From an uncultured Gammaproteobacteria bacterium (lineage in GTDB: Bacteria > Patescibacteriota > Patescibacteriia > SG8-24), in the NCBI GenBank assembly GCA_964626205.1, contig CAZVED010000004.1:2163-66162 (forward strand): a stretch of DNA of 64,000 nucleotides. The letters run 5' to 3'. The position numbers and the translations under genes were made by a program. How positions within the stretch are numbered: the first letter of the stretch is position 1; every line of letters begins with the position of its first letter. The notes beneath the pieces are model-generated. The model was not told the DNA's origin. It was given only the letters and a program-made list of their open reading frames with translations, and did not search any database. Positions 44,961 to 63,400 of this stretch are shown here, in pieces.

Positions 44961-45036
44961 TGGCCCGATAGCCAAGCAGTAAGGCAGGGGTCTGCAAAAC
45001 CCTTATGCGCGGGTGCAATTCCCGCTCGGGCCTCCA
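44961..45036 (+). tRNA. Candidate tRNA-Cys (anticodon GCA) with non-canonical D- and T-loops
   Basis: The acceptor is GGCCCGA/TCGGGCC, with U73 discriminator and encoded CCA. The anticodon arm is GGGGT-CTGCAAA-ACCCT. The T-arm is GCGGG-TGCAATT-CCCGC, which has G instead of U55. The D-loop lacks G19. Confidence 0.5.
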
Positions 45037-45101
45037 AAGTGCCCCGCTCATCCGGGCGGGGCATTGTGCATAGCGAATTTACCAACCTGAGCCGAACGGC
45101 G

Positions 45102-47834
45102 ATGGCTGCATCAAAAAAAACAACCCTGCTCATCATTGACGGTCACGCGGTACTACACCGTGCGTGGCATGCGCTTCCTCCGCTTGCGACGAAGGATGGA
45201 AGGATTGTTTCCGGGGCGTACGGGTTCATCACGACACTGCTCAAGGCGATCAGGGAATTCCAGCCGACGCATGTCGCTGTGACGTTCGATGTCGATGGAG
45301 GCACATTTCGGCACGAGGAGTACAAAGAGTACAAAGGAAAGCGCCAAGAACAACCGGAGGAGCTGTATCAACAAGTTCCGGTCATCGAGGAGATTCTCGG
45401 AGTGATGCATATTCCTGTTTTTACGAAAAAAGGTTTTGAGGCGGATGATGTCATCGGCACCATTACGCGTCTTGCAAAGGAGCAGAACAAGGACGTGACG
45501 AGCATCATTGCGACTGGCGACATGGATACGTTGCAGCTCGTCGACGATCGCACGAAGGTGTTCACCATGCGCAAAGGTTTTTCGGACACAGTGGTGTACG
45601 ACGAGCGTGCAGTCATGGAGCGCTTCGGTCTGCAGCCACGCCAACTCATCGAGTACAAGGCGTTGCGCGGCGATCCGTCCGATAACATCCCCGGTGTTCG
45701 CGGTGTTGGCGAAAAGACCGCGTCGCAACTCATTCGCGACTTCGGATCCGTCGCGGCGCTCTATGAAGCGATTGATAAGGGGGAAAAGAAGGCTGAAACA
45801 CTGACAAAAGGCATTCTTCAGAAGCTTACAGACGACCGAAAGAATGCCGAATTGGCGCACAGGTTGGTGACTATTCATCGGGATGTCCCCATTTCGTTTT
45901 CTCTCGAACAGTGCGTGTATGAGCCAGTGGCACGCGAAGTGCTCGAACCATTGTTTACCGACCTTCAATTTACAAGGTTGCTACAGCAAATTCCGGAAAA
46001 GAAGCCGGTCACAACGACGGGTGGTGCGGCCCCGCAAGAGGCGACCGCATCGTTGTTTGGTGCGGGAGAAGCAACGACACCTGTTGTATCGCCATTGCTA
46101 ACAATCGAGGATCTCGAGCGGGACTTGCGGAAAGTATTCAGTGCGAAAGAAGTCGCGTTCCGCTCATTGACGCGCCAGGATGATCCGCTTTTGCCAGACA
46201 TCATCGCATTCGCGTTTTCATCTCACGAAACGACAGTTCTTCTTGATACCAATGGTCTCGAACAACTTCGCGGAATCGTCGCGGAATCGTTATCCGGACA
46301 TGGTGGAACGCTTGTCGTCCATGATTTGAAGCGCGAACTCAATGTGCTGCGTTCCGCGGGTATCGTCCCAGGTGGGCATCCATTCGACCTGATGATTGCC
46401 TCATATTTGTTGCACTCCGGTGATCGTCGCTCATCGCTCGATGCCATGCTTGCGTTTCACCGCAATGTCGCGGCGCCGGGAAAGATGACGACCGACGAGG
46501 AGCGCACCGCACGTCTTCGCACGGAAGTTGGGTATTTCGTTTCGCTTGCAGCAGAGCTTGGCAAAGAGCTTGAAACGCACCGCTTGAAGGAGCTTAATGA
46601 GGAAATGGAGCTTCCGCTCGCCCCTGTATTGGCGCGTATGGAGCGCGTGGGAATCGCCATCGACCCGAAACACTTCGCAGCCCTATCGAAGAAGCTTGCC
46701 AAGCGTATCGACAGCCTAACCTCCGATATTACTGCGGCCGCAGGTACTGAGTTCAACATCAACTCACCTGCACAGCTCCGCGATGTATTGTTCAACCGCC
46801 TCAAAATCATGCCGCGGGGCCTTAAAAAGACCGAGAAGAGCGGGACGATTTCGACGGCTGCTGGAGAACTGGAAAAGCTCAAAGAAGACCACCCTATCAT
46901 CCGGCTCATTCTTGAGTATCGCGAACTCGCCAAACTGCAGTCGACGTACGTCGATGCCATCCCGCCGCTAGCGCACGCTGTGACGAAGCGCATTCATGCA
47001 AGCTTCAACCAGACGGTCGCGGCGACAGGCCGGCTTTCTTCGTCTGATCCGAACATGCAAAACATTCCTTCGACGGACACCGAGCATGGTAAGCAGGTCC
47101 GCAACGGCTTTGTCGCATCAAAAGGCTACACTCTTCTTGCTGCAGACTATTCCCAAGTCGAGCTTCGCATCGCCGCACATATCGCCAAAGAAAAGAAAAT
47201 GATTGATGCGTTCCGTAAAGGGGAAGACATTCATTGGCGCACTGCGGTCGAGATGTTTGGTGAAGAACAGGCAAAAGAAAAGCGTCGCATCGCGAAGGTC
47301 ATCAACTTCGGGATCCTCTATGGCATGGGCGCAAGCAGCCTCGCTATTGCCGCAGATATCCCGTTCGCTGACGCGCGCGATTACATCGAGCGGTATTTTG
47401 CCAACTATCAGGGCATCGCGACCTATATGGCAGAAATGGCAGAACGTATCGCGAAGGTTGGTCATGTGGAGACGCTTTTCGGACGCAAGCGATTCTTCCC
47501 GAATTTCGATGTGATGAATCGACGCGAGCAGGCGGAGGCCGAGCGCCAGGCGATCAACATGCCCATTCAAGGAACGAACGCGGACATGATCAAGACGGCC
47601 ATGATTCGCATCGACCAGCATATCACCAAGACGTATGGTGCAGGCGATGATGTACCAGTCCGCATGCTCCTTCAGGTTCACGACGAGCTCGTGTTCGAGG
47701 TGAAGCCGGAGGTCCTTGAAACGTTTGCCGACGTCCTCGTCCCGCTCATGGCAGACACCATCGACCTCTCGGTTCCCATTGTCGTGAATCTGTCGAAAGG
47801 TGCGCGTTGGGGTGAGCTCGAGAAGATTGCGTAG
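45102..47834 (+). CDS. polA: DNA polymerase I
   Basis: The 5'-3' exonuclease N-terminus is LLIIDGHAVLHRAWHA, and pol motifs A, B and C are present (DYSQVELRIAAH, RRIAKVINFGILYGM, VHDELVFE). Confidence 0.95.
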   Translation: MAASKKTTLLIIDGHAVLHRAWHALPPLATKDGRIVSGAYGFITTLLKAIREFQPTHVAVTFDVDGGTFRHEEYKEYKGKRQEQPEELYQQVPVIEEILGVMHIPVFTKKGFEADDVIGTITRLAKEQNKDVTSIIATGDMDTLQLVDDRTKVFTMRKGFSDTVVYDERAVMERFGLQPRQLIEYKALRGDPSDNIPGVRGVGEKTASQLIRDFGSVAALYEAIDKGEKKAETLTKGILQKLTDDRKNAELAHRLVTIHRDVPISFSLEQCVYEPVAREVLEPLFTDLQFTRLLQQIPEKKPVTTTGGAAPQEATASLFGAGEATTPVVSPLLTIEDLERDLRKVFSAKEVAFRSLTRQDDPLLPDIIAFAFSSHETTVLLDTNGLEQLRGIVAESLSGHGGTLVVHDLKRELNVLRSAGIVPGGHPFDLMIASYLLHSGDRRSSLDAMLAFHRNVAAPGKMTTDEERTARLRTEVGYFVSLAAELGKELETHRLKELNEEMELPLAPVLARMERVGIAIDPKHFAALSKKLAKRIDSLTSDITAAAGTEFNINSPAQLRDVLFNRLKIMPRGLKKTEKSGTISTAAGELEKLKEDHPIIRLILEYRELAKLQSTYVDAIPPLAHAVTKRIHASFNQTVAATGRLSSSDPNMQNIPSTDTEHGKQVRNGFVASKGYTLLAADYSQVELRIAAHIAKEKKMIDAFRKGEDIHWRTAVEMFGEEQAKEKRRIAKVINFGILYGMGASSLAIAADIPFADARDYIERYFANYQGIATYMAEMAERIAKVGHVETLFGRKRFFPNFDVMNRREQAEAERQAINMPIQGTNADMIKTAMIRIDQHITKTYGAGDDVPVRMLLQVHDELVFEVKPEVLETFADVLVPLMADTIDLSVPIVVNLSKGARWGELEKIA

Positions 47835-49185: not shown

Positions 49186-50139
49186 TCACTCCAGCAGCTT
49201 CACCTGGTCGATTTTCCCAGTGAGCTTGGCGTAGCCGGATTGCGCCGTATCCATGGCACTTTTGGCGTTGGTGATGTGCCGAGAAACGACACTGAGGTTC
49301 TCATTGAACCGGACGGACTCCTGCTGCACACCCTTGAGAATGTCCCAAATTTTTTGCGCCTGCTCCTGGAGCTTGTTGCGCTCCATGCCCATCATGATGA
49401 CGCGGAGGAAGTTGAAGAAGCCGTGCGGAGAAATGATGAGAACCCCCTTCGTTTTGGCGTAGTCGAGGAGGCCGGACTCATCGTCGGTAAGGATATGATA
49501 GTAGACGTTTTCGGACGGCACATACATGACACCGAAGTTCACGGTCCCCTCGTCCGGACGGAGGTACTTCTTGGCGATGTCGTCCACGTGTTTTTTGACC
49601 GCCTTCATGAACTCGCGCTGCGCGACCTTGCGGGATTCCTCCGTTTCCGCGCGGGTGAATTGTTTGAAGTTCTCGAGCGGGAACTTGGAGTCAATGGGAA
49701 TGAGCCCTGACTGCGTTCGAATGACTGCATCGACGGTCTCCCCTGCCGAGAACTTATACTGCAGCTGGTAGTGCTCATCCGAGAAGACCTGCGCCAGCAT
49801 ATCTGCAAGAATCTGTTCACCGATGTTGCCGCGGAGCTTCGGGTGCATAAGATCGCTGAACTCCTCGAACCCCTTGAACCGCTCCTGGACCGTTCCAAGC
49901 TCTTTCTGCACCGCCATGATGACCTGGGCCGCCTTGTCGAGCCGTTGATTCATGGATTCCGTGCTTTTGTCGATGCGTTCGTTCATGCCCTGAAGGTTCT
50001 GATTCAGCATGACGAGGCCCTTGTCGTTGGAGTGCGCGTCTTTCCATTCGGAGATCTTACGGGAAACGGTAAATGCGACCGCGATAAGTGCGAGGACGGT
50101 AAGGATGAGGATGCCGAGCAACAATGTTTCGATGGTCAT
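49186..50139 (-). CDS. rmuC: DNA recombination protein RmuC
   Basis: There is an N-terminal TM helix, a coiled-coil and a C-terminal RmuC nuclease-like region (GVLIISPHGFFNFLRVIMMG). Confidence 0.8.
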   Translation of the reverse strand: MTIETLLLGILILTVLALIAVAFTVSRKISEWKDAHSNDKGLVMLNQNLQGMNERIDKSTESMNQRLDKAAQVIMAVQKELGTVQERFKGFEEFSDLMHPKLRGNIGEQILADMLAQVFSDEHYQLQYKFSAGETVDAVIRTQSGLIPIDSKFPLENFKQFTRAETEESRKVAQREFMKAVKKHVDDIAKKYLRPDEGTVNFGVMYVPSENVYYHILTDDESGLLDYAKTKGVLIISPHGFFNFLRVIMMGMERNKLQEQAQKIWDILKGVQQESVRFNENLSVVSRHITNAKSAMDTAQSGYAKLTGKIDQVKLLE

Positions 50140-50182
50140 ATGCCGGAAGTATACGCGAACGTACGTTCAGGAAAAAGGAGAA

Positions 50183-50209
50183 ACAAAAACGCCGACCTTG
50201 CGATCGGCG
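50183..50209 (-). terminator. Terminator after the tRNA-Arg/Ala pair (cgccga-N8-tcggcg; U-run on minus strand)
   Basis: On the plus strand the A5 run at 50184-50189 precedes the hairpin. Confidence 0.45.
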
Positions 50210-50215
50210 ACTTTG

Positions 50216-50291
50216 TGGTGGACCCGAAGAGACTCGAACTCTTCACCTCTGCAATGCGAATGCAGCGCTCTACCAGATGAGCTACGGGCCC
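50216..50291 (-). tRNA. tRNA-Ala (anticodon CGC) with G3:U70 and encoded CCA
   Basis: Folded by hand: acceptor GGGCCCG/CGGGTCC, anticodon loop TTCGCAT, T-arm AAGAG-TTCGAGT-CTCTT. Confidence 0.85.
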
Positions 50292-50345
50292 ACAGGCTTC
50301 CAATGACCGTCTGAGGATAGCGTGATTTTGGGAAAGTGTAAACCG

Positions 50346-50421
50346 TGGTGCCCCCAGAGGGACTTGAACCCCCATCTTGTCCTTAGGAGAGACCTGCTCT
50401 ATCCAGTTGAGCTATAGGGGC
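50346..50421 (-). tRNA. tRNA-Arg (anticodon CCT) with encoded CCA
   Basis: The acceptor is GCCCCTA/TGGGGGC, the anticodon loop is CTCCTAA, and the T-arm is GGGGG-TTCAAGT-CCCTC. Confidence 0.8.
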
Positions 50422-50439
50422 TTACTTCCTCATCTGAGC

Positions 50440-51400
50440 GAGGTGGAGCATAGCACGGTATCCCCCATTTGGAAAGACGTGATAAAGGTATTTATGTGTC
50501 GTACAATTTTATATTATTTATATTGTTGTGTAGCAAATAGACTTGATACAACGTTTTAAAATTTATGCATGAAAAAATAAAGAGACGGCCAAGACGAAAA
50601 GCAATTCGGAAGCGTAGAATTTCGAGTGCCATTAAATGTTTCACATGGAACAACAGACGTAAGTTCTTTATACAAGTTTCACGTGAAACACATTTTCAAT
50701 TTTTGGAAATGATCAGGCTGTTTCATGTGAAACATTTTTACAACCGACAAAGCACGGTTTCAGTGTTTCATGTGAAACACCAATACAGACTCCTGACAAC
50801 GCAGATTGATCAGTGTGCGAACTGAAGAAAAACGAGAAGACCTTAGTGAAAATGCTGCCGCTACAAAGGAGCGTTGGAAAATATGTTCAGTAGGCATAAC
50901 AGTCTTGTGTATTAAAGCAAAAACGAGGCAATGACCTCTGGTTTTCAAGGCAGGTATTTTTATTGCAGTGTTGAATAGTCATATGTTTGAAAAAATGACC
51001 GGATGTTTCACGTGAAACATCAAAAGATTTGCTTGGTTAGTTGGCTAGGTGACAAAAGAAACAAAGAAATAAAAATTTTACGACACAAAATGAACGTTTT
51101 TTGATGCAAAAACAGATCAGTTTGTTTGGTGTGGACAAAGATGCCAGTCCAAGCTCAAAAATAAGTCTTTCTGTGGACAGTTTAGGGGATAAGCTACCCA
51201 ATTTGTGAATAGTTTTTTTGTACAACTTATGATTTGTTGAAAAAGTTCTTAACATGCCCATTTTTACTCTATATTTAGCCAAAAAACAGCACATTGGATG
51301 ATTGACTTTGAGCTTATTTTCTGCTAAAATAGATATGTACTAGAGAAATTGCGGCGAAAAGCCGTGTACAAAATCTAAAAATACCAAGACAAGGTACCCA
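50440..51400. promoter_or_regulatory. ~960-bp AT-rich non-coding island with a 16-bp palindrome array, upstream of the surface-protein gene cluster
   Basis: GC drops sharply relative to the ~60% background. TGTTTCATGTGAAACA occurs at 50719-50734 and 50765-50780. GTTTCACGTGAAAC occurs at 50676-50689 and 51005-51020. A degenerate copy TGTTTCACATGGAACA lies at ~50637-50652. Only short spurious ORFs are present. Confidence 0.55.
51302..51330 (+). promoter_or_regulatory. Sigma70-like promoter TTGACT-N17-TAAAAT for the first surface-protein gene
   Basis: It is a near-consensus -35 and -10 with 17-bp spacing, ~65 nt upstream of ATG 51400. Confidence 0.5.
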
Positions 51401-52197
51401 TGCACCTACCGAGTCGCGGAAAACATATTGTGGCAATCATGCTGTTTTCGTTCAGCATGATTGTTGTTTTTTCCGGTGCGGTTAAGGCGGAACGGATGAG
51501 TTCCAGCAACTATGTGATTCAAGCAGATGCCATGGGAATCGCTGGTGGTTCCAGCACCTCAACGAATTACTGGGTTATAGACACCCTCGGTGAGGTGGCA
51601 ACTGGGGAAAACCTCCAGAGCACGAACTACCGAGGCTGTGCAGGATTCGAGTGTTTCCAGGAAGAGCCGTACATCTCCTTCGTGGTTCGTCAGGGTACCT
51701 CCGCACCGGGGTCATCGGGGGCCGGTGTGAACCTTGGGGTGCTCTCGCCATCAACGGTCAAGACGTCGGATGGGGCAACGGTGAACTCAATTTTCCTGAC
51801 AGTCGAGAGCAACGCTGCCCACGGGGTCATTGCAAGCGTTCGAAGCCAGAACGCCGGCTTGCAGCGCACCTCAAATGCTCTTGCGAACATTCCATCATCG
51901 ACGGTGGCCCTTGTTCCGGGGGTCGAAGGGTACGGAGTCTGCGTTTTTTCTGCCGCAGAGGACGGCTTGAGCCCCACGGTCTTTGTGGAGAATGCCCCAT
52001 ATGACGGGACCTGCACCACAACGACGGGCCACGATGTTGGGATCGTTGACGAGACGCCACGAGCGATTCTTTCCTCCGCCGGGCAGCTCAAGGGAGGGGA
52101 ATCGGAGATTCTCGTCAAGGCAAGCGCGGGTATTTGGACCGAGGCAGGGGACGACTATGTCGATACGCTCACATTCATTTTGTCGGCGACATACTAG
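51400..52197 (+). CDS. Secreted protein, paralog A (WxL-like C-terminal motif DYVDTLTFILSATY)
   Basis: A signal peptide (MLFSFSMIVVFSGAVKA) is followed by Ser/Thr/Gly-rich beta-type sequence. The C-terminal motif is shared with the next paralog. Confidence 0.5.
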   Translation: MHLPSRGKHIVAIMLFSFSMIVVFSGAVKAERMSSSNYVIQADAMGIAGGSSTSTNYWVIDTLGEVATGENLQSTNYRGCAGFECFQEEPYISFVVRQGTSAPGSSGAGVNLGVLSPSTVKTSDGATVNSIFLTVESNAAHGVIASVRSQNAGLQRTSNALANIPSSTVALVPGVEGYGVCVFSAAEDGLSPTVFVENAPYDGTCTTTTGHDVGIVDETPRAILSSAGQLKGGESEILVKASAGIWTEAGDDYVDTLTFILSATY

Positions 52198-52843
52198 CCT
52201 CCACACCCTGCTTCCGGATGTCGTCCGGGAGTGCGGTGCGGAGGGTAGCGTTAAGCCACTCACGCAAAAATGTCTATGCGTCAGCGAACAAAAACAAAAC
52301 TGTTTTCGTTGCTGGTGAAGATGACAACGGTCGCGATGGTCGCAGGCATGGTCACGAGGATCATGCCGATCGGCCGCTAAACGACCGCTTCGGACAGTGT
52401 CGCGCGTTTTGCCCTCCAACGTCCGGAATTGCCGTCAAAAATCAACGGCAAAAACGGAATCCGCCCCTGGTGCAACAGGGAGGGCTGGATGAGGGCAGTA
52501 CTCGCGATGGTGATCCGAAGACGTCGTTCGGTGTCGGTTCCGCATCCTGTCGTCGTGAGAACGATGACCGCAGGAATGCGGAGGTGACTCCGTGTATATC
52601 GAACAGCCCAAGGTCGACTGATGTCGCGTGTCCGGGCGACTCAGTATCACGTCAGCGTATTCTTCTGCCGCGTCTCGCCTGTCCAAAGGGCGGAAACGGC
52701 ATGGCGTTGACGACGGATATTTATTCTTTACTGCTGCTTCCAAGCACGCTCGCGCATTTGCCAATAACGTCATCCTCAACTCGAGAAGGGATGACGTGAC
52801 GGTGCGCAGGCCTTAGCAAGGAAGCGAGCCTACAAGTACGACA

Positions 52844-53965
52844 ATGAAAAACAAAATATTCTCGTTCGTTGCAAAGCTGACCTCTGTGGCGATGATCCTG
52901 TCATCCCTGCTGCAGGTCGCTCCGGTCCGTGCGGCGACCGTGACCTCGCTCAGCGATGTTATGACGCGCCTCGCGGCATCCGTTGCCTCTAATCACGAAA
53001 TCAAGTTCGTGATACCCGGAGGTATCGCCGCAGGAGAAACTGTTACGTTGACCTTTGGATCCGGATTCGACATCTCCTCAATCGTCGAGGACGATGTGGA
53101 TTTCGCGGTCGGCAATTCTAACAATTGCTCCACCGCAACATTCACGGAAGAAGCTACTGCGGCGGTGGCTGACGCTGCCGACTGGGGTGTCGCCGTTTCC
53201 AGCCAGGTGCTGACCATCACGAGCGGTACTGACACGCTTGTCGCGGACCGTTGTGTCCGCATCCGCGTCGGAACCAATGCTGTCAGCTCCGGCACAGGCG
53301 CCAATCAGGCGGTCAACCCGACGGCTGGCGCAAACACGATTGTGGTCGGCGGCACCATGGGTGATGTCGGCACGATCGCTCTCTCCATCGTCGACTCGGA
53401 TCAGGTCACGGTTACCGCGACCGTCGATCCGTCGCTGACGTTCGATCTCGACACCGCGACCTCGGATACGAACTCTGCGAGCCCGTATTCCGTGGCGCTC
53501 GGCACCCTTACGCCGGGTACACCGAAGTCGTCCGACCAGTCAGCCATCAACAGCATCTACGTCGACCTGACAACGAACGCCACCTCCGGCGCGGTTGTCA
53601 CGGTCCGTAATGCCAATGGTGCAGATGGTCTCGTGAGTACATCCGTACCCACAGACACCATCGACAGTGCGGACGGTACGATGTCCAGCGCGACAGCCAA
53701 CTACGGCATCTGCATTGAGTCGGTCACACAGACGGCCGGTGCGACGCTGACGGAGGTCGCCCCGTATGACGGCACCTGCGTCGCTGGTGCTACGGACAAC
53801 GTCGTCGGTGGCCTGCTCGCCACCGCGACGAACATCCTGACCGCCGCGAGTCCGATTAACGTCGGTCGCGCGGAGATCCTCGTGAACGCCAACGCAACGG
53901 CGCTCACGGTGGCTCACAACGACTATACCGACACCCTGACCTTCATCGCGACGGGTACGTTCTAA
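52844..53965 (+). CDS. Secreted protein, paralog B (C-terminal AEILVNANATALTVAHNDYTDTLTFIATGTF)
   Basis: It has a signal peptide (LTSVAMILSSLLQVAPVRA). Its C-terminal 30 aa align with paralog A (SEILVKASAGIWTEAGDDYVDTLTFILSATY). Confidence 0.5.
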   Translation: MKNKIFSFVAKLTSVAMILSSLLQVAPVRAATVTSLSDVMTRLAASVASNHEIKFVIPGGIAAGETVTLTFGSGFDISSIVEDDVDFAVGNSNNCSTATFTEEATAAVADAADWGVAVSSQVLTITSGTDTLVADRCVRIRVGTNAVSSGTGANQAVNPTAGANTIVVGGTMGDVGTIALSIVDSDQVTVTATVDPSLTFDLDTATSDTNSASPYSVALGTLTPGTPKSSDQSAINSIYVDLTTNATSGAVVTVRNANGADGLVSTSVPTDTIDSADGTMSSATANYGICIESVTQTAGATLTEVAPYDGTCVAGATDNVVGGLLATATNILTAASPINVGRAEILVNANATALTVAHNDYTDTLTFIATGTF

Positions 53966-54051
53966 GTGGTCGTTGCTTGCTTGGTCCCCCTCGACTTCGA
54001 GGGGGGTCATCCTGCGGCGATTACGGACAATCATCACTAACCTCAACTCCT

Positions 54052-55068
54052 ATGCGAAAATCCAGACATTTGCTCGGAACGGTCACGCTCACGCTTGCGC
54101 TCGCGGCGGCACTTCTGCCGGTTTCCGCGAGCGCGCTCACCATCTCTCCGCCATCGTTCGATTACAACCTGAACCCCGGAGACACGGTCCTCGATGTCGT
54201 GAAGGTCTATAACGAGAATGAAACGACAGAGATCGTGTATCCCGTCCTCGTTGATTTCGTTGCTGACGAAGGCGAGGCTGGCGCTCCACGTTTCGTTCCT
54301 GCAGGGACCGATGCTGCGGGAGCCGGTATTTCCGACTGGATTTCCATGGACATGTCCGGGCTCGTCGTTGCTCCAGACGAGCGCATCAACTTCCCGTTTT
54401 CCATCAACGTCCCGGCAGACGCGTCGCCGGGTGGTCACTACGGCGCCATCCTGCTTTCTACGGAACCGCCATCCGATGTCCCGGGAGGCGTCGGTGTCGC
54501 GTCGCAGATCGCCGCGCTCATTCTCGTGAACGTTTCCGGAGACGTTCGAGAAGTCGGCGCTATCGCGGAATTCGGATTCGTGGATCCGCAGGTCTGGTAC
54601 GACCACCTGCCTATCGACTTTTTCCTCCGTTTCGAGAACTCGGGCAACACGCACCTGCGCCCATCCGGCAACCTATTTGTCGAGGACTGGACCGGTCGCC
54701 AGGTCGCATCCATCAAAGTGAACGAAAGCTTCAACGGTGTTTTACCGATGAGCATCCGTCGATTCCAGTTCGGTTGGCAGAAGCGCGGTTTCGACACGTC
54801 AGACTCCGGGCTCGAACGCGAATGGAAGAATTTCGCGATCGGTAAACACACGGCGACCCTCGTCTTGAACTACGGCAGAGCGACCGGACAGGTCGTGAGT
54901 GAGCAGCGCGTGTTCTATGTCTGGCCGTGGAGGCTCATGATCGTGAGCGGCATCGTCCTGCTTATCCTCGCGGTGCTGTGGGTCATTCGTCGAAAGATGT
55001 TCGCGAAGGGCGTTATTGCGCGGTATGAGGAGGCCAAGCGTAAAGAAGCAGCCTTGAGGAAGGGATAG
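54052..55068 (+). CDS. Cell-surface protein with an N-terminal signal peptide and a C-terminal TM anchor plus basic tail (DUF916/CscA-like architecture)
   Basis: The protein begins MRKSRHLLGTVTLTLALAAALLPVSASA. It then has ~280 aa of beta-rich domain, and ends ...WPWRLMIVSGIVLLILAVLWVIRRKMFAKGVIARYEEAKRKEAALRKG. Confidence 0.5.
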   Translation: MRKSRHLLGTVTLTLALAAALLPVSASALTISPPSFDYNLNPGDTVLDVVKVYNENETTEIVYPVLVDFVADEGEAGAPRFVPAGTDAAGAGISDWISMDMSGLVVAPDERINFPFSINVPADASPGGHYGAILLSTEPPSDVPGGVGVASQIAALILVNVSGDVREVGAIAEFGFVDPQVWYDHLPIDFFLRFENSGNTHLRPSGNLFVEDWTGRQVASIKVNESFNGVLPMSIRRFQFGWQKRGFDTSDSGLEREWKNFAIGKHTATLVLNYGRATGQVVSEQRVFYVWPWRLMIVSGIVLLILAVLWVIRRKMFAKGVIARYEEAKRKEAALRKG

Positions 55069-55116
55069 GAGGAAAAGTAGAGAGCTATTGACCCGTATAT
55101 ATATAGAAGCACGAAA

Positions 55117-58100
55117 ATGAACCAGGAGACGCGACAAACGACCTTGCTGCAGCGACTGAGCCTGACTCTCGGGTTCGGGCTGCTTGTCGTTGTCGCGTCA
55201 TCCACGCTCGTCTTCTTCGCTTCTGCGACCGCGGTATCCGAACGCTCGGATACGCTCTCCAACCAGACGTCGGGTCAGGCATCTTCCCACACCATCCGCT
55301 TCACGCTGTCGGGTGGCAATGCGTTTGCCGCCGCCGAACAGATCGTCGTTGATTTCGGCGAGGATGATGCCAGGTTTGCCGTGGCTGGCATGACCTTTGC
55401 CGCAGCCGACATCGAGGTTGATGACGGGACATCGCGCACAACATACTCCGTGACGAACGGTCCGGCTTCATGTGTGGGTTCTTTGGGGGCGAACGACATT
55501 GCCGTCGGCATCGACGATGCGACAGGTGTCATTACCATGGAAGCGTGCCCATCCTTCGTTGCAAGCGCGGCCGGCGCTCTTGTGACGATCCGTATCGGCG
55601 CGGTCGCTGGCGGTACGGACAGGATTACGAACCCGACCGCCGGAAGCCACCTTATCGATATCGTCGATGCGGCAGGAGACTGCCAGACCTTCGGTGACGT
55701 CTGCGCCATCGGCATCGCCATCCTTGATGCGGGGATGGTCACCATCAGCGCGGTCGTCCCTCCGGTGTGCGGCGACGGCAAGGTAGAAGGCGACGAAATG
55801 TGCGATGACGGAAACCTTGTCGGTGGCGACGGGTGTTCAAGCACGTGTCGTAATGAGAATGATGGCGGAACCTCCGTCGACATCGCGCCACCGGTTATTT
55901 CCAACGTACGCGTGGAAGATGTCACGACGACTTCGGTGACGGTCGCGTGGGATGCCAATGAACCTGCATCCGGACGTGTTGAGTACGGTGCAGATCAGAC
56001 GTATGGAAGCGTCGCCGGTCAGTCGGCATTCCTGTACGCGCACACCATCGGTCTCTCCGGCCTCCAGCCGAACACGACGTATCACTTCCGTGTCTGTTCG
56101 ACGGATCCGACGCAGAACGAAGCGTGCTCCGGCGACGCCACGTTCATGACCGCATCCGTGCAGGACGCGCTCCCGCCAGTCATCACGAACATCCAGGTGA
56201 CGAGCGTCACCGCGACCAGCGCGACAATCGTCTGGACCACGGACGAAGCCGCGACGTCCTTCGTAGACTACGACACCGACGGCGCTCCGTATGCTTCCGT
56301 CGCGACGACCGCCGGTCTTGCGACCGCGCACTCCGTCGCGCTGTCCGGCCTCCAGCCGAACACGACGCATCACTTCCGCGTACGTTCCGGTGACGCATCT
56401 TCAAACGAGGCGTTTAGTACGGACCTTACCTTCATGACCGCATCCGTGCAGGACACGCTCCCGCCAGTCATCACGAACATCCAGGTGACGAATGTCACTG
56501 CGACCAGTGCGACGATCGTCTGGACCACGGACGAAGCCGCGACGTCCTTCGTAGACTACGATACCGACGGCGCTCCGTACGCTGCCGTCGCGCCAACGTC
56601 GGGTCTTGCGACCGCGCACTCCGTTACGCTGTCCGGCCTCCAACCGAATACGACGTACCATTTCCGCGTGCGTTCTGTGGATGCATATGGAAACGAGTCG
56701 TTCGGTACGAATATGACGCTTGCGACATGGGACGCGCTCCCGCCAGTCATCACGAACATCCAGGTGACGAGCGTCACCGCGACCAGCGCGACAATCGTCT
56801 GGACCACGGACGAAGCCGCGACGTCCTTCGTAGACTACGACACCGACGGCGCTCCGTATGCTTCCGTCGCGACGACCGCCGGTCTTGCGACCGCGCACTC
56901 CGTCGCGCTGTCCGGCCTCCAGCCGAACACGATGCATCACTTCCGCGTGCGTTCTGTAGACGGGGGTGCGAACGAGGCGGTTTCGGAGAACGCGACATTC
57001 AGGACCTTGGTACCAGCAGCACCGGTTGTGAGCGATGTTCAGGTGACGGATGTGACGGACTCATCCGCCCGCATCACGTGGGTCACGGATACGACATCGA
57101 CCACTGTCGTGGAGTATGGACTTTCGACAACATATGGCGCTGTCGTCTCGAACCCGACGTTGTCCACGAACCATCTTGCGCTCATCACCGGGCTTACGAA
57201 CGGCACGATGTATCACTTCCGCGTATCATCGACCGATGCCTATGACCAAACGACGATTGTCGATGGAGGGACATTCACGACCACCGCAGACGTGACCGCA
57301 CCTCCGAATGTTACTGGTTTCATCGCCGAGCCAGGAGATGCTTTGGTGCTGCTTTCATGGACGAACCCGGCGGCCGCGGACTTCGCTGGCGTCCGCATCC
57401 TCCGAAAGACGACGGGATTCTCTTCCGGTCCGACGGACGGTGACATGGTGTACTCCGGCGTTGCGCAATCGTTCGCGGACATGGGTGTGTCGAACGACAT
57501 CGTGTACTACTACACCATCTTCGCTTTCGACGAGGTGCCGAACTTCTCGACTGGCGCGGTCGTGTCTGCGACCCCGGTCGGACCAGAGGACATGACGCCG
57601 CCGGGACCGGTGACCGGTTTCATGGCCATCGCTGGAGACGCCAGCGTGGAACTTTCGTGGACGAACCCGATGGACGCCGATCTTCGCGGTGTTCGTATCG
57701 TCCGCAAAGAAGACGGGTGCCCTGTCGACGAGACCGACGGCACGACCGTGTACGCTGGCCTCGCGACGTCGCGCATGGACATCGGGCTCATGAACGATAC
57801 GACGTATTGCTATGCGGCATACGCATACGATGCTGTTCCGAACTTCTCGTTCGGTACGACTGCGACCGCGACGCCTGTCGCAATAGAGGATGTGACGCCG
57901 CCTGGGCCGACCACTGACTTCGTCGCCACCGCCGGAGACGCCATCGTTCTCCTTACATGGACGAACCCGACGGATACGGATTGGCGAGGGACGCGCATCG
58001 TTCGCAAGGTCGGTTCCGACCCGACGTCGCCGACAGACGGCACTGTCTTGTATGAGGCTGCCGCGAGCTTCTTCTGGGATGACATCAATCTGACGAATGG

Positions 58101-60396
58101 CGTGACGTATCACTACGCGGCATACGCATACGACGAAGCCGGAAATTTCTCGGCAGGCGCGTTCGCCAACGCGACACCGCTTGAGGGGCTTCCACTTCCG
58201 GTTCTCGCCTGCTCCGACTCCGATGGTGGCCTCTCGTTCGAGGTCGCAGGAACGGTGACGACGCCATCCGGAGCGTTCATCGACGCATGCGTGGACGAGA
58301 CGATGCTTCGCGAATACTTCTGTGCCGGAACATCCGTACAGGAACAAGCGTACGTTTGCGATGCTGGCGCACGTTGCTTGGCAGGACGCTGCGTCCCTGA
58401 GGACTACGTGCCCATGCCGGATACATGCGGTAACAGTTTCTGTGATGGTGTCGAGACGAACCTTTCATGTCCGTCGGATTGTCCGGTGGCAGCAGGTATT
58501 CCGTTGCAGCATCTTGGGGCGACAAACGTGCCTCCCGAAGAGCGTTTGCAACTGGATTTGGTGCGGTTCTATGCGACCGAACGACAGATTGAGCTCGTCT
58601 TCGACGAGAATAACCGTATCGCCATCTATCCGGCGACGACCGTCCGTGTGTATCTGCCGGACGCAGCGATCCGGAAGCCGATTCGCGAGGCATATGCGAC
58701 CATCGAAAGTTCTTCGTATGCGATGCGTGAGACGCGGAGCTATGAGACGAGCATCGTCATGCCGAAGGAGACCGCAGACCACCCGCTCACGTTCAGCGTG
58801 CTGTATCAGGACGGCACACACGAGATCACGGAGTACTCGTTCGTCGTCAATCCGTTCAGCGTCATCTATGAGGTGGTCGGTGGCAAGCCGGTTCCGGTCG
58901 CGGATGCTCGTGTGGCCGTCTTCCGACAGGACGAGCGTGGCAGGTTCGGCCTGTGGGATGCCGATCGCTTCGGGCAACAGAATCCGATCGTCACGAACGT
59001 TTCCGGCTCGTACGGCTTCATTGCCGAACCCGGCACGTACCGCCTGCAGGTGGAAGCTCCCGGATTCCGTCCGTTCCAGACGCTGCCGTTCCGCGTCCGC
59101 GAGAACCTTGTCGGTCGTGATGTCGAGATGGTCCGGTTGCCACCGCCATTCATCGAGAATCCCGTGGAGAACATCGTCAACCGTGCGGCATTCTTGCTCG
59201 ATGCGACACGGCAAGAAGTGATGGAGTTCATCGATAACGAGTTCGTCGAGGAGGGGACGGTAACCGTGGCACCGGTCGCCCTCGCTGTCGCCGCGACGAA
59301 TGCCGCGGCCGTGGTGCCTCACCTGCCATTCCTGTACTCGCTCCTTGCGCACCCGTTCCGCATCATCGCAATGCGGCGCAGGAAGAAGTGGGGGGTCGTT
59401 TTCGACGCCATCACGCAGATGCCGGTGGACCTCGCGATTGTCCGTTTGCTGGACGCGGAGACTGGACGCATCATGCGTACCGCCGTGACGGATCAGCAAG
59501 GTCGGTACGCATTCATCGTGAAGCCAGGGTCGTATCGCTTGACGGCGACCAAAGTCGGCATGACGTTCCCATCCGTCTTCCTGAAGGAAAAGAAAGAATC
59601 TGCGCGTTTCATCGACCTGTACCACGGAGAGCCTGTGGCTGTCAGCGCGGAAGACGTCATCACTGCGAATATCCCGCTTGATCCGATTGGTAGCGCAAAG
59701 ACGCCGACGCGCATCGTATGGGAGGGCGTTGGCCGGAGGTTCCAGCACGGCATCGGCATTCTCGCCATTGTCACGATGGTCGGCGTCATGGTCATCGCGC
59801 CGAGCATGTTCACGGCGGCGCTCTTGGCCGGGAATGTGATCTTCTATGCGGTCTTCCGGCGTGTCACATCGGTACGGCACCCGAAGAGCTGGGGTATCGT
59901 CTACGACGAGGAAACGGGCAAGCCCCTTACGAACGTCGTCGCCCGCGTGTTCGACACGGCATACGACAAGCTGCTGGAGACACAAGTGACAGACATCAAA
60001 GGTCGGTACGCGTTCCTTGTCGGCAATAACGTGTATTACGTGACGTTCGAGAAGCCAGGATATCGGAAACGGCAGAGTGACAAGGTTGACCTGCTCGCCG
60101 GCGACAAGGCGAAGGATCAGGTCGTCGCGGTCGATGTTACGCTCTCGCAGGCGAAGGGCGATGGCGAGACGAAAAAGCCGGAGGCTCCACCACCCCTTCT
60201 CGTGCCACCGCCTACGGCGACGCCTCCTCCGATGTCACCGCTCGCCCCGCATGCGCGGGAGATCGACGAAGAGCAGCTCGCGGAATCGGCGGTCGGGTCC
60301 GTCGCTCAGATGCTCGAGCATGAGGAGCCTGATGATGGGCAGAAAAAGGAATGGATAGAGCGACATCGACCGGAGGATGAAGAAGGTAAACAGTGA
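55117..60396 (+). CDS. Giant (1759 aa) membrane-anchored multidomain surface protein with FN3-like repeats (4 + 4), a Cys-rich module, three CarboxypepD_reg-like domains interleaved with TM segments, and a Pro-rich tail
   Basis: The N-terminal TM/signal is GFGLLVVVASSTLVFFASA. Repeats of type PPVITNIQVTSVTATSATIVWTTDEAATSFVDYDTDGAPYASV...LSGLQPNTTHHFRVRS (purple-acid-phosphatase-N-like FN3) occur 4 times. A second FN3-like type with SWTNP...GVRIxRK occurs 4 times. Further on are GRYAFIVKPGSYRL and GSYGFIAEPGTYRL motifs, a TM stretch ILAIVTMVGVMVIAPSMFTAALLAGNVIFYAVF, and a C-terminal PPPLLVPPPTATPPPMSP. Confidence 0.75.
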   Translation: MNQETRQTTLLQRLSLTLGFGLLVVVASSTLVFFASATAVSERSDTLSNQTSGQASSHTIRFTLSGGNAFAAAEQIVVDFGEDDARFAVAGMTFAAADIEVDDGTSRTTYSVTNGPASCVGSLGANDIAVGIDDATGVITMEACPSFVASAAGALVTIRIGAVAGGTDRITNPTAGSHLIDIVDAAGDCQTFGDVCAIGIAILDAGMVTISAVVPPVCGDGKVEGDEMCDDGNLVGGDGCSSTCRNENDGGTSVDIAPPVISNVRVEDVTTTSVTVAWDANEPASGRVEYGADQTYGSVAGQSAFLYAHTIGLSGLQPNTTYHFRVCSTDPTQNEACSGDATFMTASVQDALPPVITNIQVTSVTATSATIVWTTDEAATSFVDYDTDGAPYASVATTAGLATAHSVALSGLQPNTTHHFRVRSGDASSNEAFSTDLTFMTASVQDTLPPVITNIQVTNVTATSATIVWTTDEAATSFVDYDTDGAPYAAVAPTSGLATAHSVTLSGLQPNTTYHFRVRSVDAYGNESFGTNMTLATWDALPPVITNIQVTSVTATSATIVWTTDEAATSFVDYDTDGAPYASVATTAGLATAHSVALSGLQPNTMHHFRVRSVDGGANEAVSENATFRTLVPAAPVVSDVQVTDVTDSSARITWVTDTTSTTVVEYGLSTTYGAVVSNPTLSTNHLALITGLTNGTMYHFRVSSTDAYDQTTIVDGGTFTTTADVTAPPNVTGFIAEPGDALVLLSWTNPAAADFAGVRILRKTTGFSSGPTDGDMVYSGVAQSFADMGVSNDIVYYYTIFAFDEVPNFSTGAVVSATPVGPEDMTPPGPVTGFMAIAGDASVELSWTNPMDADLRGVRIVRKEDGCPVDETDGTTVYAGLATSRMDIGLMNDTTYCYAAYAYDAVPNFSFGTTATATPVAIEDVTPPGPTTDFVATAGDAIVLLTWTNPTDTDWRGTRIVRKVGSDPTSPTDGTVLYEAAASFFWDDINLTNGVTYHYAAYAYDEAGNFSAGAFANATPLEGLPLPVLACSDSDGGLSFEVAGTVTTPSGAFIDACVDETMLREYFCAGTSVQEQAYVCDAGARCLAGRCVPEDYVPMPDTCGNSFCDGVETNLSCPSDCPVAAGIPLQHLGATNVPPEERLQLDLVRFYATERQIELVFDENNRIAIYPATTVRVYLPDAAIRKPIREAYATIESSSYAMRETRSYETSIVMPKETADHPLTFSVLYQDGTHEITEYSFVVNPFSVIYEVVGGKPVPVADARVAVFRQDERGRFGLWDADRFGQQNPIVTNVSGSYGFIAEPGTYRLQVEAPGFRPFQTLPFRVRENLVGRDVEMVRLPPPFIENPVENIVNRAAFLLDATRQEVMEFIDNEFVEEGTVTVAPVALAVAATNAAAVVPHLPFLYSLLAHPFRIIAMRRRKKWGVVFDAITQMPVDLAIVRLLDAETGRIMRTAVTDQQGRYAFIVKPGSYRLTATKVGMTFPSVFLKEKKESARFIDLYHGEPVAVSAEDVITANIPLDPIGSAKTPTRIVWEGVGRRFQHGIGILAIVTMVGVMVIAPSMFTAALLAGNVIFYAVFRRVTSVRHPKSWGIVYDEETGKPLTNVVARVFDTAYDKLLETQVTDIKGRYAFLVGNNVYYVTFEKPGYRKRQSDKVDLLAGDKAKDQVVAVDVTLSQAKGDGETKKPEAPPPLLVPPPTATPPPMSPLAPHAREIDEEQLAESAVGSVAQMLEHEEPDDGQKKEWIERHRPEDEEGKQ
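56139..56990 (+). repeat. In-frame tandem DNA repeat inside the giant gene: three units of ~279-288 bp, with ~195-bp stretches perfectly identical between units 1 and 3, plus a diverged unit 0 at ~55850-56138
   Basis: GCTCCCGCCAGTCATCACGAACATCCAGGTGACG recurs at 56169, 56457 and 56736. The antisense track ORFs 55837..56373 and 56401..56940 share identical peptides, which confirms the DNA identity. Confidence 0.75.
57290..58190 (+). repeat. Second in-frame tandem repeat (3-4 units of 300 bp, diverged) encoding SWTNP-type FN3-like domains
   Basis: TGGACGAACCCG recurs at 57358, 57658 and 57958. Confidence 0.5.
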
Positions 60397-60491: not shown

Positions 60492-63400
60492 ATGTCAGGT
60501 TTGCAGTACAACAAGGTTCTTCCGCTTTTGCGGCGAATGTTCACGCTTGGCGTGCATGCTTTGGGCATGCTCGCTGTGCTTTTGGTGGCATCCGTCGCTT
60601 TGGCATCGGGTCCGGACCAGAACCGCATTCTCAACTACCAGATCCGCCTCACGGATGCCAATGGCATCGCGGTTCCGGACGGAACGACCGACATCAAGCT
60701 CACTTTCTACACTGCCGCATCCGGAGGGACGCAGCTCTACACGGCCTGTTCCGCCGACGGTTCACCGACCGGTACGCCGACAGCAGTCGAGGCGACGTTC
60801 ACTTCAGGCGTCGCGACGGTGCTTATTGGCGATACGGGCATCACGTGCGCTTCCGGATCCGCCGTGGCGATTCCGGCGACATTGTTCACCAACACCGCGA
60901 TGTATCTCGGCGTCACCGTCGAGGCGGATGCGGAAATGACCCCACGCAAGCGCATTGTCGCGGCCGGATACGCATTGAATGCCGACCGTCTCGATGACCT
61001 TGAGACATCGGCAGTCGGTGGCTCTGGTGCATTCGTGCCGATCACGGACGGCAGCGGCAACCTGACGTTGACCGAGGACCTTGCAGTGGACGGCACCACG
61101 TTCCTTGTCGACAGCGCGAACAACCGCATCGGTATCGGCACGATCACACCGGATGCCGTGCTCGATATCGAGGGTGCGGAAGACACAGAACGCATTCGCC
61201 TCACGGACGCGACGAACGTCGATTCCGTCGGCATTTATACCGGCTCCGGTACGCCGAACGGCTCGCTCACTGCGCAGGCCGGCTCCATCTTCCTCGATCA
61301 GACCGGTGGCGTGTACGTAAACACGAACGATGGTACCGCATGGTCGTTGTTGTCCGCAGGCGGCAGCATGGCTATCGGTGGCACGATTACGAGCGGCACG
61401 GTCGGCTCGCTGCTGTTCGTCGGTTCCGGTCCGTCACTCGCACAAGATAACGCGAACGTGTTCTGGGATGATGCGAGTAACCGACTCGGCATCGGCACCA
61501 ACGCGCCGTTGCGTACGCTCGACGTCGCGGGCTCGCAGCGCCTCCGTGGTACTGGCAGCACAGTGCTTACCGGCACTATCGATCCCGCTGCATCCACGAC
61601 AGTGACTGGCGTAGGTACTGCGTTTACCACGGAGATCGCGCTTGGCGACCGTATCGTCGTCGGTGGCGAAACTCGCACTGTGGTCGCGATCGCTTCCGAC
61701 ACGTCGCTCACGGTCGATCAGGCATTCTCGGACAATGCGAACGATACGTCGCCGGATGTGCTGTCCGCGATTGCGACGTTCCTGAAGAGCGACGGAACTC
61801 TGGGTCCGTCCGTGAACGACATCGGTGAACTCGTCATCGGACACCTTACCTCCGACCCGCTCGGTGGAAAGGCGCACATGTACTACAACACCACGACGAA
61901 CAAGTTCCGTTGTTACGAGAACACCACGTGGAAAGACTGCGTCGTCGATACGAGTGGTGACATTACGGGTACCGGTTCCAATGGTGCGGTGACTTTCTGG
62001 AGCGGATCATTGACGCTCTCCGCAGACTCCGCAAACTTCTTCTGGGATGACACGAACAACCGACTCGGCATCGGCGACGCGACACCCGCAGCGAGCCTCA
62101 CCGTCGGTTCCGGCGATTTGTTCCAGGTGGCCGGTGCTTCGGGCAACATCACGACGGCCGGTACGCTCACGGTGAACGGCACTGGCGCCTCGCTCATCGG
62201 CGGCAACCTCACGGTGAACGGTAACACCACGCTCGGTAACGCGGTGGGAGACACCGTAGCGTTCACGGGACGCCTGAACTCGCCGACGCATGGTGCCAGC
62301 AAGGGGTTGCTGCTGCCGACAAACGCTGGTGCGCCGAGTCCGGTGACCGGCACGACTGAGGGTGATATCGTGTGGGATACTACGAACGACCTTCTCTACG
62401 TGTACGACGGCTCCGCCTTCACGAGCTTCTCTGCAGGCGGTGTGAGCATTGGTGGTGATGTCTCTGGCGGTACGGTTGGCTCGGTACTCTTCGTGGGCAC
62501 GAGCGGACTGCTCACGCAGGACAACGCATCGTTCTTCTGGGATGACACCAACAATCGCCTCGGCATTGGCGACGCGACGCCGGCCGCCACGCTCACTGTC
62601 GGTTCCGGCGACCTGTTCCAGGTGGCGGGGGCTTCGGGCAACATTACGACCGCCGGCACACTTACGGTGAACGGCACCGGTGCTTCGCTCATCGGCGGCA
62701 ACCTCACGGTGAACGGCACGACCGCGCTCGGAAATGCCTCCGGAGACACCGTCACTGTCGCAGGCCGCTTGGTGACCTCGAACCATGCCGCAAATCAAGG
62801 CTTCAAGATTCCGACTTACGGTGCAGGGGCGCCTGGTGCCGTGACTGGCACGGTTGAAGGAGACATCGTATGGGATACGACCAACGACGTGCTCTATATT
62901 TATGACGGTGCCGATTTCACGAGCTTCTCTGCAGGCGGCGGCGTGAGCATTGGTGGCGCGGTGGCGAGCGGTACGGTCGGATCCATCCTGTTCGTCGGCG
63001 CAGGCGGCAATCTCGACCAGGACAACCCCGCATTGTACTGGGACTACACGAACGACCGCCTCGGTCTGGGTGACGCGACTCCGAGCTATACGCTTGATAT
63101 TAACGGCACATTCCGCGCCACCGGCGCCGCGCTCTTCGATGGCACGGTCGCGCTCGGCAATGCGGCAGGGGACACGGTCACTGTCGCGGGCCGTCTCGAC
63201 CTTGGAGCACACGCAGCGAATATCGGTTTGAACATTCCGACGAGCGCGGGCGTGCCGAGCGGCGTCACTGGAACCGCCGAGGGCGACATCGTCTGGGATG
63301 CGACGAACAACACGCTGTATCTGTATGACGGTGCATCCTTCGCGCAGATCAACGGTGCAATCGGTATTGGCAACACGGTCTCGAGCGGTACGAGCGGCTC

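Follow-up and report, generated by a model that had tools for sequence, protein, structure and literature searches.

The window analyzed here, a 64,000-nucleotide (nt) stretch of contig CAZVED010000004.1, carries four co-directional plus-strand genes, designated g1-g4, which we interpret as a divergent operon for a Pam-type pilus, with a probability of roughly 0.8. Such a pilus would be a chaperone-assisted, usher-less fiber assembled by donor-strand exchange, and its host is probably an Uhrbacteria-like member of the Candidate Phyla Radiation (CPR; Patescibacteria), judging from the closest homologs. An attached life on host cells is assumed for CPR bacteria, whose means of contact are largely unknown. 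We favor the Pam interpretation because g1 matches the PamT model, because many related pilin-family proteins match Pam models and because window-type and Pam C-terminal domains (CTDs) agree in profile comparisons. Further reasons are the two-domain architecture of g2 with its conserved linker, the WxLIP- and PapD-like nature of g3, the lack of an acceptor domain in g4, and the conserved gene order.

The first description of Pam pili dates from 2026 and concerns a single cultured species, the Saccharimonadia parasite Candidatus Mycosynbacter amalyticus, whose thin filaments were studied by cryo-electron microscopy (cryo-EM) (Troman et al., bioRxiv 10.64898/2026.03.03.709456). In that system, PamT consists of a C-domain only and is the proposed tip; PamC and PamD are PapD/FimC-like chaperones that retain a C-terminal transmembrane (TM) helix; and PamR, the proposed terminator and anchor, has an N-terminal strand, two FnIII domains and one TM helix. 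According to the same preprint, conservation in Pam pilins is highest in the linker and the C-terminal strand, the pili detach easily, and a tail-fiber-like protein co-localizes with pam operons.

The genes of the window-type system, with the parts of g2 and lengths in amino acids (aa), are given below; AF2 stands for AlphaFold2 and ORF for open reading frame.

51400-52197, plus strand: g1, 265 aa, putative PamT-like tip subunit
52844-53965, plus strand: g2, 373 aa, putative shaft pilin
residues 1-29 of g2, plus strand: signal peptide
residues 30-183 of g2 (52931-53392), plus strand: N-terminal beta-sandwich (AF2 model)
residues 184-197 of g2 (53393-53434), plus strand: linker and putative donor strand SDQVTVTATVDPS, coil in the AF2 monomer
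residues 198-373 of g2 (53435-53962), plus strand: acceptor CTD (AF2 model, HH comparison)
54052-55068, plus strand: g3, 338 aa from ATG (the ORF opens at TTG 53977), putative membrane-anchored chaperone
55117-60396, plus strand: g4, 1759 aa, multi-TM giant, putative terminator and anchor

An earlier reading of the window, made from the sequence only, had described four co-directional genes encoding two secreted paralogs, a TM-anchored protein and a giant, and our coordinates and translations agree with this description. All four products carry signal sequences, with hydrophobic N-termini and AXA-type cleavage sites.

Proposed subunits and anchor, and gene order

The CTDs of g1 and g2 are 36% identical over 181 aa (BLASTP, E=2e-26). 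On this alignment the paralogy of the two proteins is real and well beyond chance. They end in DYVDTLTFILSATY (g1) and DYTDTLTFIATGTF (g2) and have in common the motif DY(V/T)DTLTFI, so that the earlier description of two secreted paralogs with a shared C-terminal motif is borne out. In g1, a signal peptide with predicted cleavage after VKA is followed by an N-terminal motif of ~55 aa (MSSxNY..D..GG..S.S.NY..DT.GE..TGE..S.NY..G[FY][EQ]C) and then by the acceptor CTD alone, with neither an N-domain nor a linker strand. Its SxNY motif also occurs in PamT-like proteins of a related locus (L027) that score 192 bits. Against the NCBIfam model NF058579 (CPR_pilus_PamT), g1 itself scores 47 bits (E=2e-12; equivalog cutoff, 240 bits). 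By this match it is a PamT homolog of the same architecture and not an equivalog under the NCBI threshold.

The AF2 model of g2 (predicted local distance difference test score, pLDDT, 92.9) has two beta domains, between which residues 184-197 are unstructured in the monomer. Among 50 homologs, the best conserved stretches are this linker (DDDQVTVTATV) and the C-terminal strand DYTDTLTFIATGTF. Each pilin has two pairs of Cys residues. Homologs of g2 are numerous: 285 word-filtered matches at 40-54% identity, conserved over the full length, were all unnamed or from Patescibacteria, and an exhaustive profile search placed 2,715 cluster representatives in the family at E<=1e-3.

The connection to Pam was provided by related loci. 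There, 38 of 85 pilin-family ORFs match NF058581 (CPR_Pam_pilin_C; best E=7e-51) and 29 match PamT. A profile of window-type CTDs, compared with the CTDs of proteins that match the NCBIfam Pam models, gave an HH probability of 99.3% (E=5e-20); some proteins of the comparison set come from L027 and score higher than the curated cutoff. A g3 homolog comes directly after those pilins of L027 whose scores clear the NCBIfam cutoffs. We consider the link of g2 to the Pam family through these loci secure at the level of sequence profiles. Some members of the pilin family are giants of 1,000-3,000 aa (among P0256, P0279, P0298, P0315, P0327 and P0267). Certain of these carry a pilin module, or the acceptor C-domain alone, at the extreme C-terminus and are candidate tip adhesins with a resemblance to "large WxL" proteins; one protein of 3,077 aa has the N-domain at its N-terminus, as in g4.

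The last of the four genes supplies a different combination of parts. Residues 37-216 of g4 (55225-55764) align with the N-domain and linker of g2 (27% identity, BLASTP E=6e-10); GMVTISAVVPP in g4 is placed on QVTVTATVDPS in g2, and the similarity stops where an acceptor domain would begin. The N-terminal part of g4 is pilin-like, with an N-domain and a putative donor strand, and has no acceptor domain. It is followed by a Cys-rich repeat, FN3 domains (five clear ones and three further FN3-like), a Cys-rich and beta-rich middle, a TM/CarboxypepD_reg module and a Pro-rich acidic tail. In the module, TM segments predicted by hydropathy at residues ~1381-1419 (59257-59373) and ~1545-1581 (59749-59859) are interleaved with three CarboxypepD_reg domains. 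No LPXTG motif was found on reading the g4 sequence, in agreement with the earlier proposal of a giant multi-domain protein held by TM helices instead of LPXTG.

Since g4 could donate a strand but could not accept one, it would be the last subunit added. It is best read as terminator and membrane anchor, with the FN3 domains as a stalk across the envelope. PapH, which has a donor strand and no acceptor, terminates Pap pili by the same logic. In at least 10 loci, the gene directly behind that of the chaperone encodes a full-length g4 ortholog, and the giant fused anchor is a new element of the present system.

Alternatively, the fiber could be real and g4 not its base but an independent giant adhesin or envelope-spanning scaffold with a pilin-like N-domain; another protein would then terminate the fibers, or they would be shed. 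This alternative is favored by the TM/CarboxypepD_reg module, which in other Pam-type loci occurs as a separate protein of ~840 aa without the pilin N-domain and which in L024-L026 is split from a protein composed of the N-domain and FN3. Easy detachment of Pam pili and the much smaller size of PamR point the same way (bioRxiv 10.64898/2026.03.03.709456). Against it, the alignment of g4 with g2 covers the donor strand and halts exactly at the would-be acceptor domain, N-domain-first giants follow the chaperone gene in many loci, and a donor strand without an acceptor domain is what a terminator requires. We therefore regard an independent role of g4 as unlikely.

The gene order is conserved beyond the window. 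Among GTDB species representatives, 147 relatives of g3 were detected, and 80 of their loci were fetched; nearly all belong to Patescibacteria, the closest being Uhrbacteria-type genomes. The homologs of g2 and g3 that bear names likewise come almost entirely from Patescibacteria. The pilin gene has a g3 homolog directly behind it in 4/4 contigs that encode close homologs, and in most GTDB loci that have a pilin gene with both the N-terminal domain and the CTD. The exact order tip, pilin, chaperone, anchor occurs in L005-L015, L018 and L072. More distant loci resemble M. amalyticus in having several pilins along with 2-4 chaperone paralogs. One complete Patescibacteria genome (L001, 842 kb) has a gene for a 121-aa four-helix protein of the 23S_rRNA_IVP/bAvd-like type (9423-9788) between the PamT-like and pilin genes. 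bAvd is an accessory protein of diversity-generating retroelements. This gene may indicate pilin diversification in some lineages.

The order of the four genes is thus conserved in more than 10 CPR genomes, and the co-occurrence in relatives that the sequence-only reading had named as a test is found. Unrelated hypothetical secreted proteins, or S-layer or envelope proteins, adjacent by chance, would fit the lack of any Pfam family for g1 or g2 and the fact that the organism is known here from its genes alone. However, the gene order is kept across dozens of CPR species, the homologies to Pam and WxLIP proteins are significant, and a cis-element is conserved upstream. Synteny and profile matches already contradict chance adjacency, to which we give next to no weight.

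Under the Pam interpretation, g1-g4 would be exported by Sec and cleaved at the AXA sites. Tethered to the cytoplasmic membrane by its C-terminal helix, g3 would receive the newly exported g1 and g2 and cap the groove of their incomplete C-terminal Ig-like domain with an inserted strand. With its acceptor domain only, g1 would nucleate the fiber at the distal tip. Copies of g2 would be added serially, the linker strand (V-T-V-T-A-T-V) of each displacing the chaperone strand in the previous subunit, such that the fiber would grow from its base. Finally, g4, which has the pilin N-domain and donor strand and no acceptor, would join the fiber, could not be extended and would stop growth, fixing the fiber to the membrane through the long FN3 stalk and the C-terminal TM helices.

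Several points weigh against the Pam interpretation. The NCBIfam Pam models, including NF058581, gave nothing for g2 at E<=1. Searches of PDB sequences with g1 and g2 returned nothing, and the CTD profile returned only chance matches in the same database. With g2 unmatched and g1 far below the PamT cutoff, Pam membership therefore rests on profile and intermediate-sequence links. The likeness of g3 and g4 to PamC/PamD and PamR is one of described architecture, and the size and membrane topology of g4 are unlike those of PamR; the conserved TM/CarboxypepD_reg module of g4 may serve a further purpose. Strand insertion, the polarity of the fiber and the terminator function of g4 are features that we infer from these architectures by analogy.

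Kinship of the chaperone and the WxL/Csc question

Firmicute WxL clusters encode a small WxL protein, a large WxL protein, a WxLIP (DUF916, DUF3324 and a TM helix) and usually an LPXTG protein; insertion of a WxLIP strand into the WxL domain has been predicted by AF2 (PMC1534035, PMC9772566, PMC10599100). The sequence-only reading had likened the window genes to such a cell-surface complex (Csc), with g3 in the place of CscA/DUF916. In g3, a signal peptide is followed by Ig-like beta-sandwich domains at residues ~29-160 and ~165-290, a C-terminal TM helix (~287-319 or, more narrowly drawn, ~293-315) and a K/R-rich cytoplasmic tail. The AF2 model (pLDDT 93.5) contains the two Ig-like sandwiches and a long C-terminal helix at residues 293-337. 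Sequence and model thus agree with the signal peptide, C-terminal TM helix and basic tail seen earlier.

A Foldseek search of the PDB with the g3 model placed Enterococcus faecium WxLIP on top (9i1y/9i25, E=4e-10), 9i25 being WxLIP bound to a long WxL protein. The next matches were chaperones of chaperone-usher systems, namely CfaA, CsuC, Caf1M, YadV, DraB, FaeE and PapD (E 2e-9 to 5e-7), at the fold level only. A search of PDB sequences with the g3 family profile did not reach WxLIP. In Pfam, g3 alone matches PF06030 (DUF916/WxLIP_PGBD) marginally (E=0.11), and 34 of 54 close homologs match it, the best at 1.2e-9; NCBI names some g3 homologs DUF916 proteins. When plasmids were searched with g3 (tblastn), matches were found in Deinococcus (7e-10) and in annotated DUF916 proteins of Clavibacter, Streptomyces, Arthrobacter, Cellulosimicrobium and the Firmicute Rossellomorea.

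A homolog search with a Rossellomorea WxL protein returned only the query itself. For profile comparisons, sets of WxL proteins, WxLIPs and actinobacterial partner proteins were therefore assembled from plasmid annotations; the Firmicute WxLIP set comprised 10 DUF916/DUF3324 proteins adjoining annotated WxL genes, including that of B. anthracis pXO1. The g3 family profile matched this set with an HH probability of 97.9% (E=6e-13) over 216 columns and both domains, the alignment taking in the second domain as well (columns 36-277). With the actinobacterial and Deinococcus proteins, the probability was 99.8% (E=2e-29). DUF3324 (PF11797) was not matched by the g3 family in the Pfam scan at E<=0.01. 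Judged by the homolog matches, the profiles and the top fold match, g3 is a member of the DUF916/WxLIP (CscA-like) superfamily, and the earlier comparison with CscA holds. Among the three Pfam families that had been named for comparison, PF06030 was reached through the homologs, PF11797 was not, and PF13731 (WxL) was absent from the 25 most-matched families in a scan of 85 ORFs.

This link joins two systems that have been treated separately until now, and it is new here. The Pam preprint mentions neither WxL nor DUF916. In the literature searched, WxL proteins and donor-strand assembly came together only in one incidental review, and DUF916 appeared in none of the top-ranked CPR papers of the combined search. 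The DUF916/WxLIP chaperone supplies the Pam system with an outgroup in Firmicutes, Actinobacteria and Deinococcus. Its kinship also turns the question of WxL/Csc function into a specific structural hypothesis.

The kinship is less direct for the subunits. PF13731 was not among the 25 most-matched of 42 Pfam families hit at E<=1 by the 85 pilin-family ORFs, so at most one of these could match it, and weakly. An alignment of 14 WxL sequences, alone or together with actinobacterial partners, gave HH probabilities of no more than 5.5% with Pam CTD profiles. The score of ~22 for WxL against Pam CTD exceeds all column-shuffled nulls (0/167 reached ~22). We rejected this excess as evidence because unrelated beta-sandwich control profiles score equally, their range of 10-24 spanning the WxL value.

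A resemblance remains in the layout of the domains. The unsupervised alignment of WxL and Pam CTD is collinear over ~130 columns and places G[WYF]x[LV] on TNAxxG(Y/A)xV and Yxxx[LI]T[WY]x[LI] on YxDTLTFI. The two motifs are 96-119 aa apart in WxL proteins (tail of ~4 aa) and 116-117 aa apart in g1 and g2 (4-aa tail). Proteins without Trp that adjoin DUF916 genes in actinobacteria (ending in ...DYSSTITLSLFE) are WxL homologs (HH probability 96.5%, E=7e-10), and Trp is therefore not obligatory. The proposal that the terminal motif of g1 and g2 is a WxL signature is not supported by the Pfam scan or the HH comparison, and what is left of it is the collinear resemblance and the spacing. Given homologous chaperones and matching architectures, a common origin of the Pam CTD and the WxL domain is plausible.

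These data bear on whether the genes encode a WxL/Csc-type surface complex that forms no polymer, in which g3 would tether g1 and g2 permanently by strand insertion and g4 would be a separate adhesin. Membership of g3 in the DUF916/WxLIP superfamily suits such a complex, as does the set of small subunit, large subunit and TM-anchored partner, which is that of a minimal WxL cluster; WxLIP has been described as a stable WxL binder, and the structure of a WxLIP-WxL complex has been solved (9i25). However, the subunits are homologous to Pam pilins, which were seen as filaments by cryo-EM, and no membership in the WxL domain family was detected. In addition, the linker strand of g2 is strongly conserved, is repeated in g4 and is absent from g1, and it would have no role in a 1:1 tether. 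A complex without polymer is on balance quite unlikely. Of the earlier idea of a Csc-type complex outside Firmicutes, the chaperone lineage and the gene layout stand, and the subunits are instead those of the Pam pilin family, with no LPXTG protein. Both a DUF916 similarity and conserved four-gene synteny were found, the joint absence of which would have reduced the genes to unrelated secreted proteins.

A broader possibility is that Pam pili, Firmicute WxL/Csc systems and the DUF916 plasmid clusters of actinobacteria and Deinococcus form one ancient, usher-less strand-complementation family of surface systems with membrane-anchored chaperones in single-membrane bacteria, the Pam C-domain being the counterpart of WxL. 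We put this forward tentatively, at somewhat less than even odds. If it is true, Pam pili would not be inventions exclusive to CPR, and donor-strand exchange may be the way in which WxL proteins, of unclear function since 2006, are assembled or even polymerized.

The plasmid loci have features of their own. On pXO1-like plasmids of the B. cereus group (B. anthracis pXO1, L091, 4193-5954; L093, L095, L096), small WxL, DUF916/DUF3324 and large WxL genes form a cluster. It lies in the conjugation region, where a CpaF/VirB11 ATPase gene and two or three ORFs of ~67 aa (three in L093, L095 and L096) directly precede it; this position suggests a role in mating-pair adhesion. On actinobacterial plasmids (L086, L098-L101), DUF916 genes are preceded by genes for small secreted proteins without Trp, which end in ...DYSSTITLSLFE or ...NYTATIVHSVI and are annotated as hypothetical. 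In Deinococcus (L085, L103), a g3 homolog (E=5e-27) lies between unclassified partners that have a similar C-terminal strand, followed by a protein of >1000 aa.

Probable control region and neighborhood of the operon

Upstream of g1, the locus begins with a tRNA pair and an AT-rich region; two further elements lie between g1 and g2, and another gene follows g4.

50216-50291, minus strand: tRNA-Ala(cgc), predicted by ARAGORN and Rfam
50346-50421, minus strand: tRNA-Arg(cct), predicted by ARAGORN and Rfam (62.9 and 59.9 bits for the tRNA pair)
50480-51399, no strand assigned: AT-rich putative control region (GC drop, palindrome array, sigma-70-like site)
52270-52380, plus strand: small ORF for a 36-aa hydrophobic peptide, MSMRQRTKTKLFSLLVKMTTVAMVAGMVTRIMPIGR, a candidate gene from the ORF list
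52767-52797, plus strand: stem-loop in the leader of the pilin gene, with stem ACGTCATCC / GGATGACGT and CTCGAG in the loop
60492-64000, plus strand, running past the window end: fifth gene, at least 1169 aa, frame open from 60399

The tRNA pair, the AT-rich region of ~0.9 kb and the four genes follow one another in this order. GC content falls to 0.36 over 50500-51500, from ~0.58 elsewhere, which agrees with the earlier observation of an AT-rich stretch of ~1 kb after the tRNAs. Within it are five copies of a 14-bp palindrome, GTTTCAYGTGAAAC (50638-50651, 50676-50689, 50720-50733, 50765-50778 and 51005-51018), where 0.32 matches would be expected; there are none elsewhere in the 64 kb. Allowing one mismatch, the palindrome occurs 46 times in 16 related loci (L006-L008, L010, L012-L018, L024-L026, L041 and L072), each time upstream of the first pilus gene, at a distance of 190-3572 bp and mostly within AT-rich sequence, and nowhere else in ~1.3 Mb of loci. 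The array, likewise new here, looks like a candidate operator element for a putative regulator. A sigma-70-like site, TTGACT-17-TAAAAT with an extended TG, was found at 51302-51330 as a consensus match only. Pilus gene expression is probably controlled from this region with its five palindromes. No transcription-factor gene adjoining the operon was seen in the window, and the palindrome array offers a handle for finding the regulator.

The spacer between g1 and g2 is 646 nt long, with counterparts of 330-840 nt in relatives. The frame of the 36-aa ORF is kept in the equivalent spacer of L018, L013 and L010 (four loci with the window); the ORF may be a real gene for a small membrane peptide, or a signal peptide left behind when a pilin gene was lost. 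The CTCGAG stem-loop recurs 40-90 nt before the pilin start in L006, L008, L013, L014, L018 and L072, and RNAalifold on seven sequences gave eight pairs, two of them with compensatory changes, which is weak covariation. A second conserved block, AAAAGGTCGATATAYCYT, lies further upstream of the stem-loop. Both could be leader or processing elements that set a high pilin-to-tip ratio. An Rfam scan of 50100-53000 found the two tRNAs and nothing else.

The window had also been described as containing a tRNA-flanked island. The tRNAs occur on one side only and are the upstream boundary of the locus, outside the system itself. The upstream neighbors are the housekeeping genes PolA, HolA and RmuC and so give no sign of a mobile island; there is no integrase, and we rejected a mobile-island reading. 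Long alternative-frame ORFs within g4 and downstream (e.g., 540 aa, 62007-63629, minus strand) were set aside as shadows of plus-strand genes. Elsewhere in the window, ARAGORN predicted a tRNA-Cys at 44962-45036 (plus strand), overlapping the 5' part of a minus-strand ROK-family ORF (43970-45136). As the Pfam match of this ORF covers nothing before residue 101, translation probably starts further in, and the tRNA-Cys may be real.

The set of genes continues beyond 60396, where the earlier description stopped: a fifth plus-strand gene begins at 60492. Its product has a signal or TM N-terminus followed by repeats such as FFWDDTNNRLGIGDATP, which match tail-fiber-type families in PHROGs (phrog_5906 at 4e-35). 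It looks like a tail-fiber-type repeat protein and may be an associated adhesin.

Comparison with known systems

The window system and chaperone-usher pili (Pap, Fim, CFA/I, Csu, Caf1) have in common the two-domain Ig-like fold of the chaperone and, by analogy, incomplete Ig-like subunits completed by a donated strand and a tip-shaft-terminator logic. They differ in that the window system has no outer membrane or usher and its chaperone is membrane-anchored, in that the putative donor strand is an internal linker between two domains rather than an N-terminal extension, and in that no sequence similarity is detectable. Usher families were not matched by g1-g4 or the flanking genes in Pfam and NCBIfam, nor by the fifth gene, scanned with Pfam and PHROGs only.

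In the case of WxL/Csc systems, g3 and WxLIP are homologous over both Ig-like domains and each has a C-terminal TM helix. The CTD-only g1 and the larger g2, with N-domain and CTD, correspond to the small and large proteins directly upstream of the chaperone gene, a big anchored protein is present, and partners would in each case be bound by strand insertion. In contrast, the C-domain of g1 and g2 is not recognizable as WxL in the Pfam scan, the HH comparison or the fold search, both of its motifs lack Trp, DUF3324 has no Pfam match, and anchoring is by TM helices instead of LPXTG and sortase. WxL proteins are described as peptidoglycan-bound complexes and not as filaments, and nothing equivalent to the conserved internal donor strand proposed for g2 and g4 has been described for them.

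The Pam system of M. amalyticus differs from that of the window in several respects. The window sequences are too divergent for the curated models (NF058579 and NF058581 leave g2 undetected and g1 at 47 of 240 bits), which at present miss Pam genes of this type. One shaft pilin takes the place of PamA, PamB and PamE, and one chaperone that of PamC and PamD; g4 is a 1759-aa fusion with a full N-domain, donor strand, ~8 FN3 domains and a polytopic TM/CarboxypepD_reg module, compared with the small PamR. ATP synthase, CorB and MFS genes do not adjoin the locus, where PolA, HolA and RmuC are the neighbors, and the Uhrbacteria-like host lies outside the two classes that hold most homologs in the preprint. 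The similarities are a C-domain-only tip; pilins composed of an N-terminal beta-sandwich, a linker or donor strand and a truncated Ig-like C-domain, with paired cysteines; a PapD-like chaperone with a C-terminal TM helix; a putative terminator with FN3 domains and a TM anchor; the lack of an usher; a CPR host; and a tail-fiber-like gene nearby. On the Pam interpretation, this machinery would exist in Uhrbacteria-like and many other Patescibacteria in a diverged, streamlined form with one tip, one pilin, one chaperone and one fused anchor.

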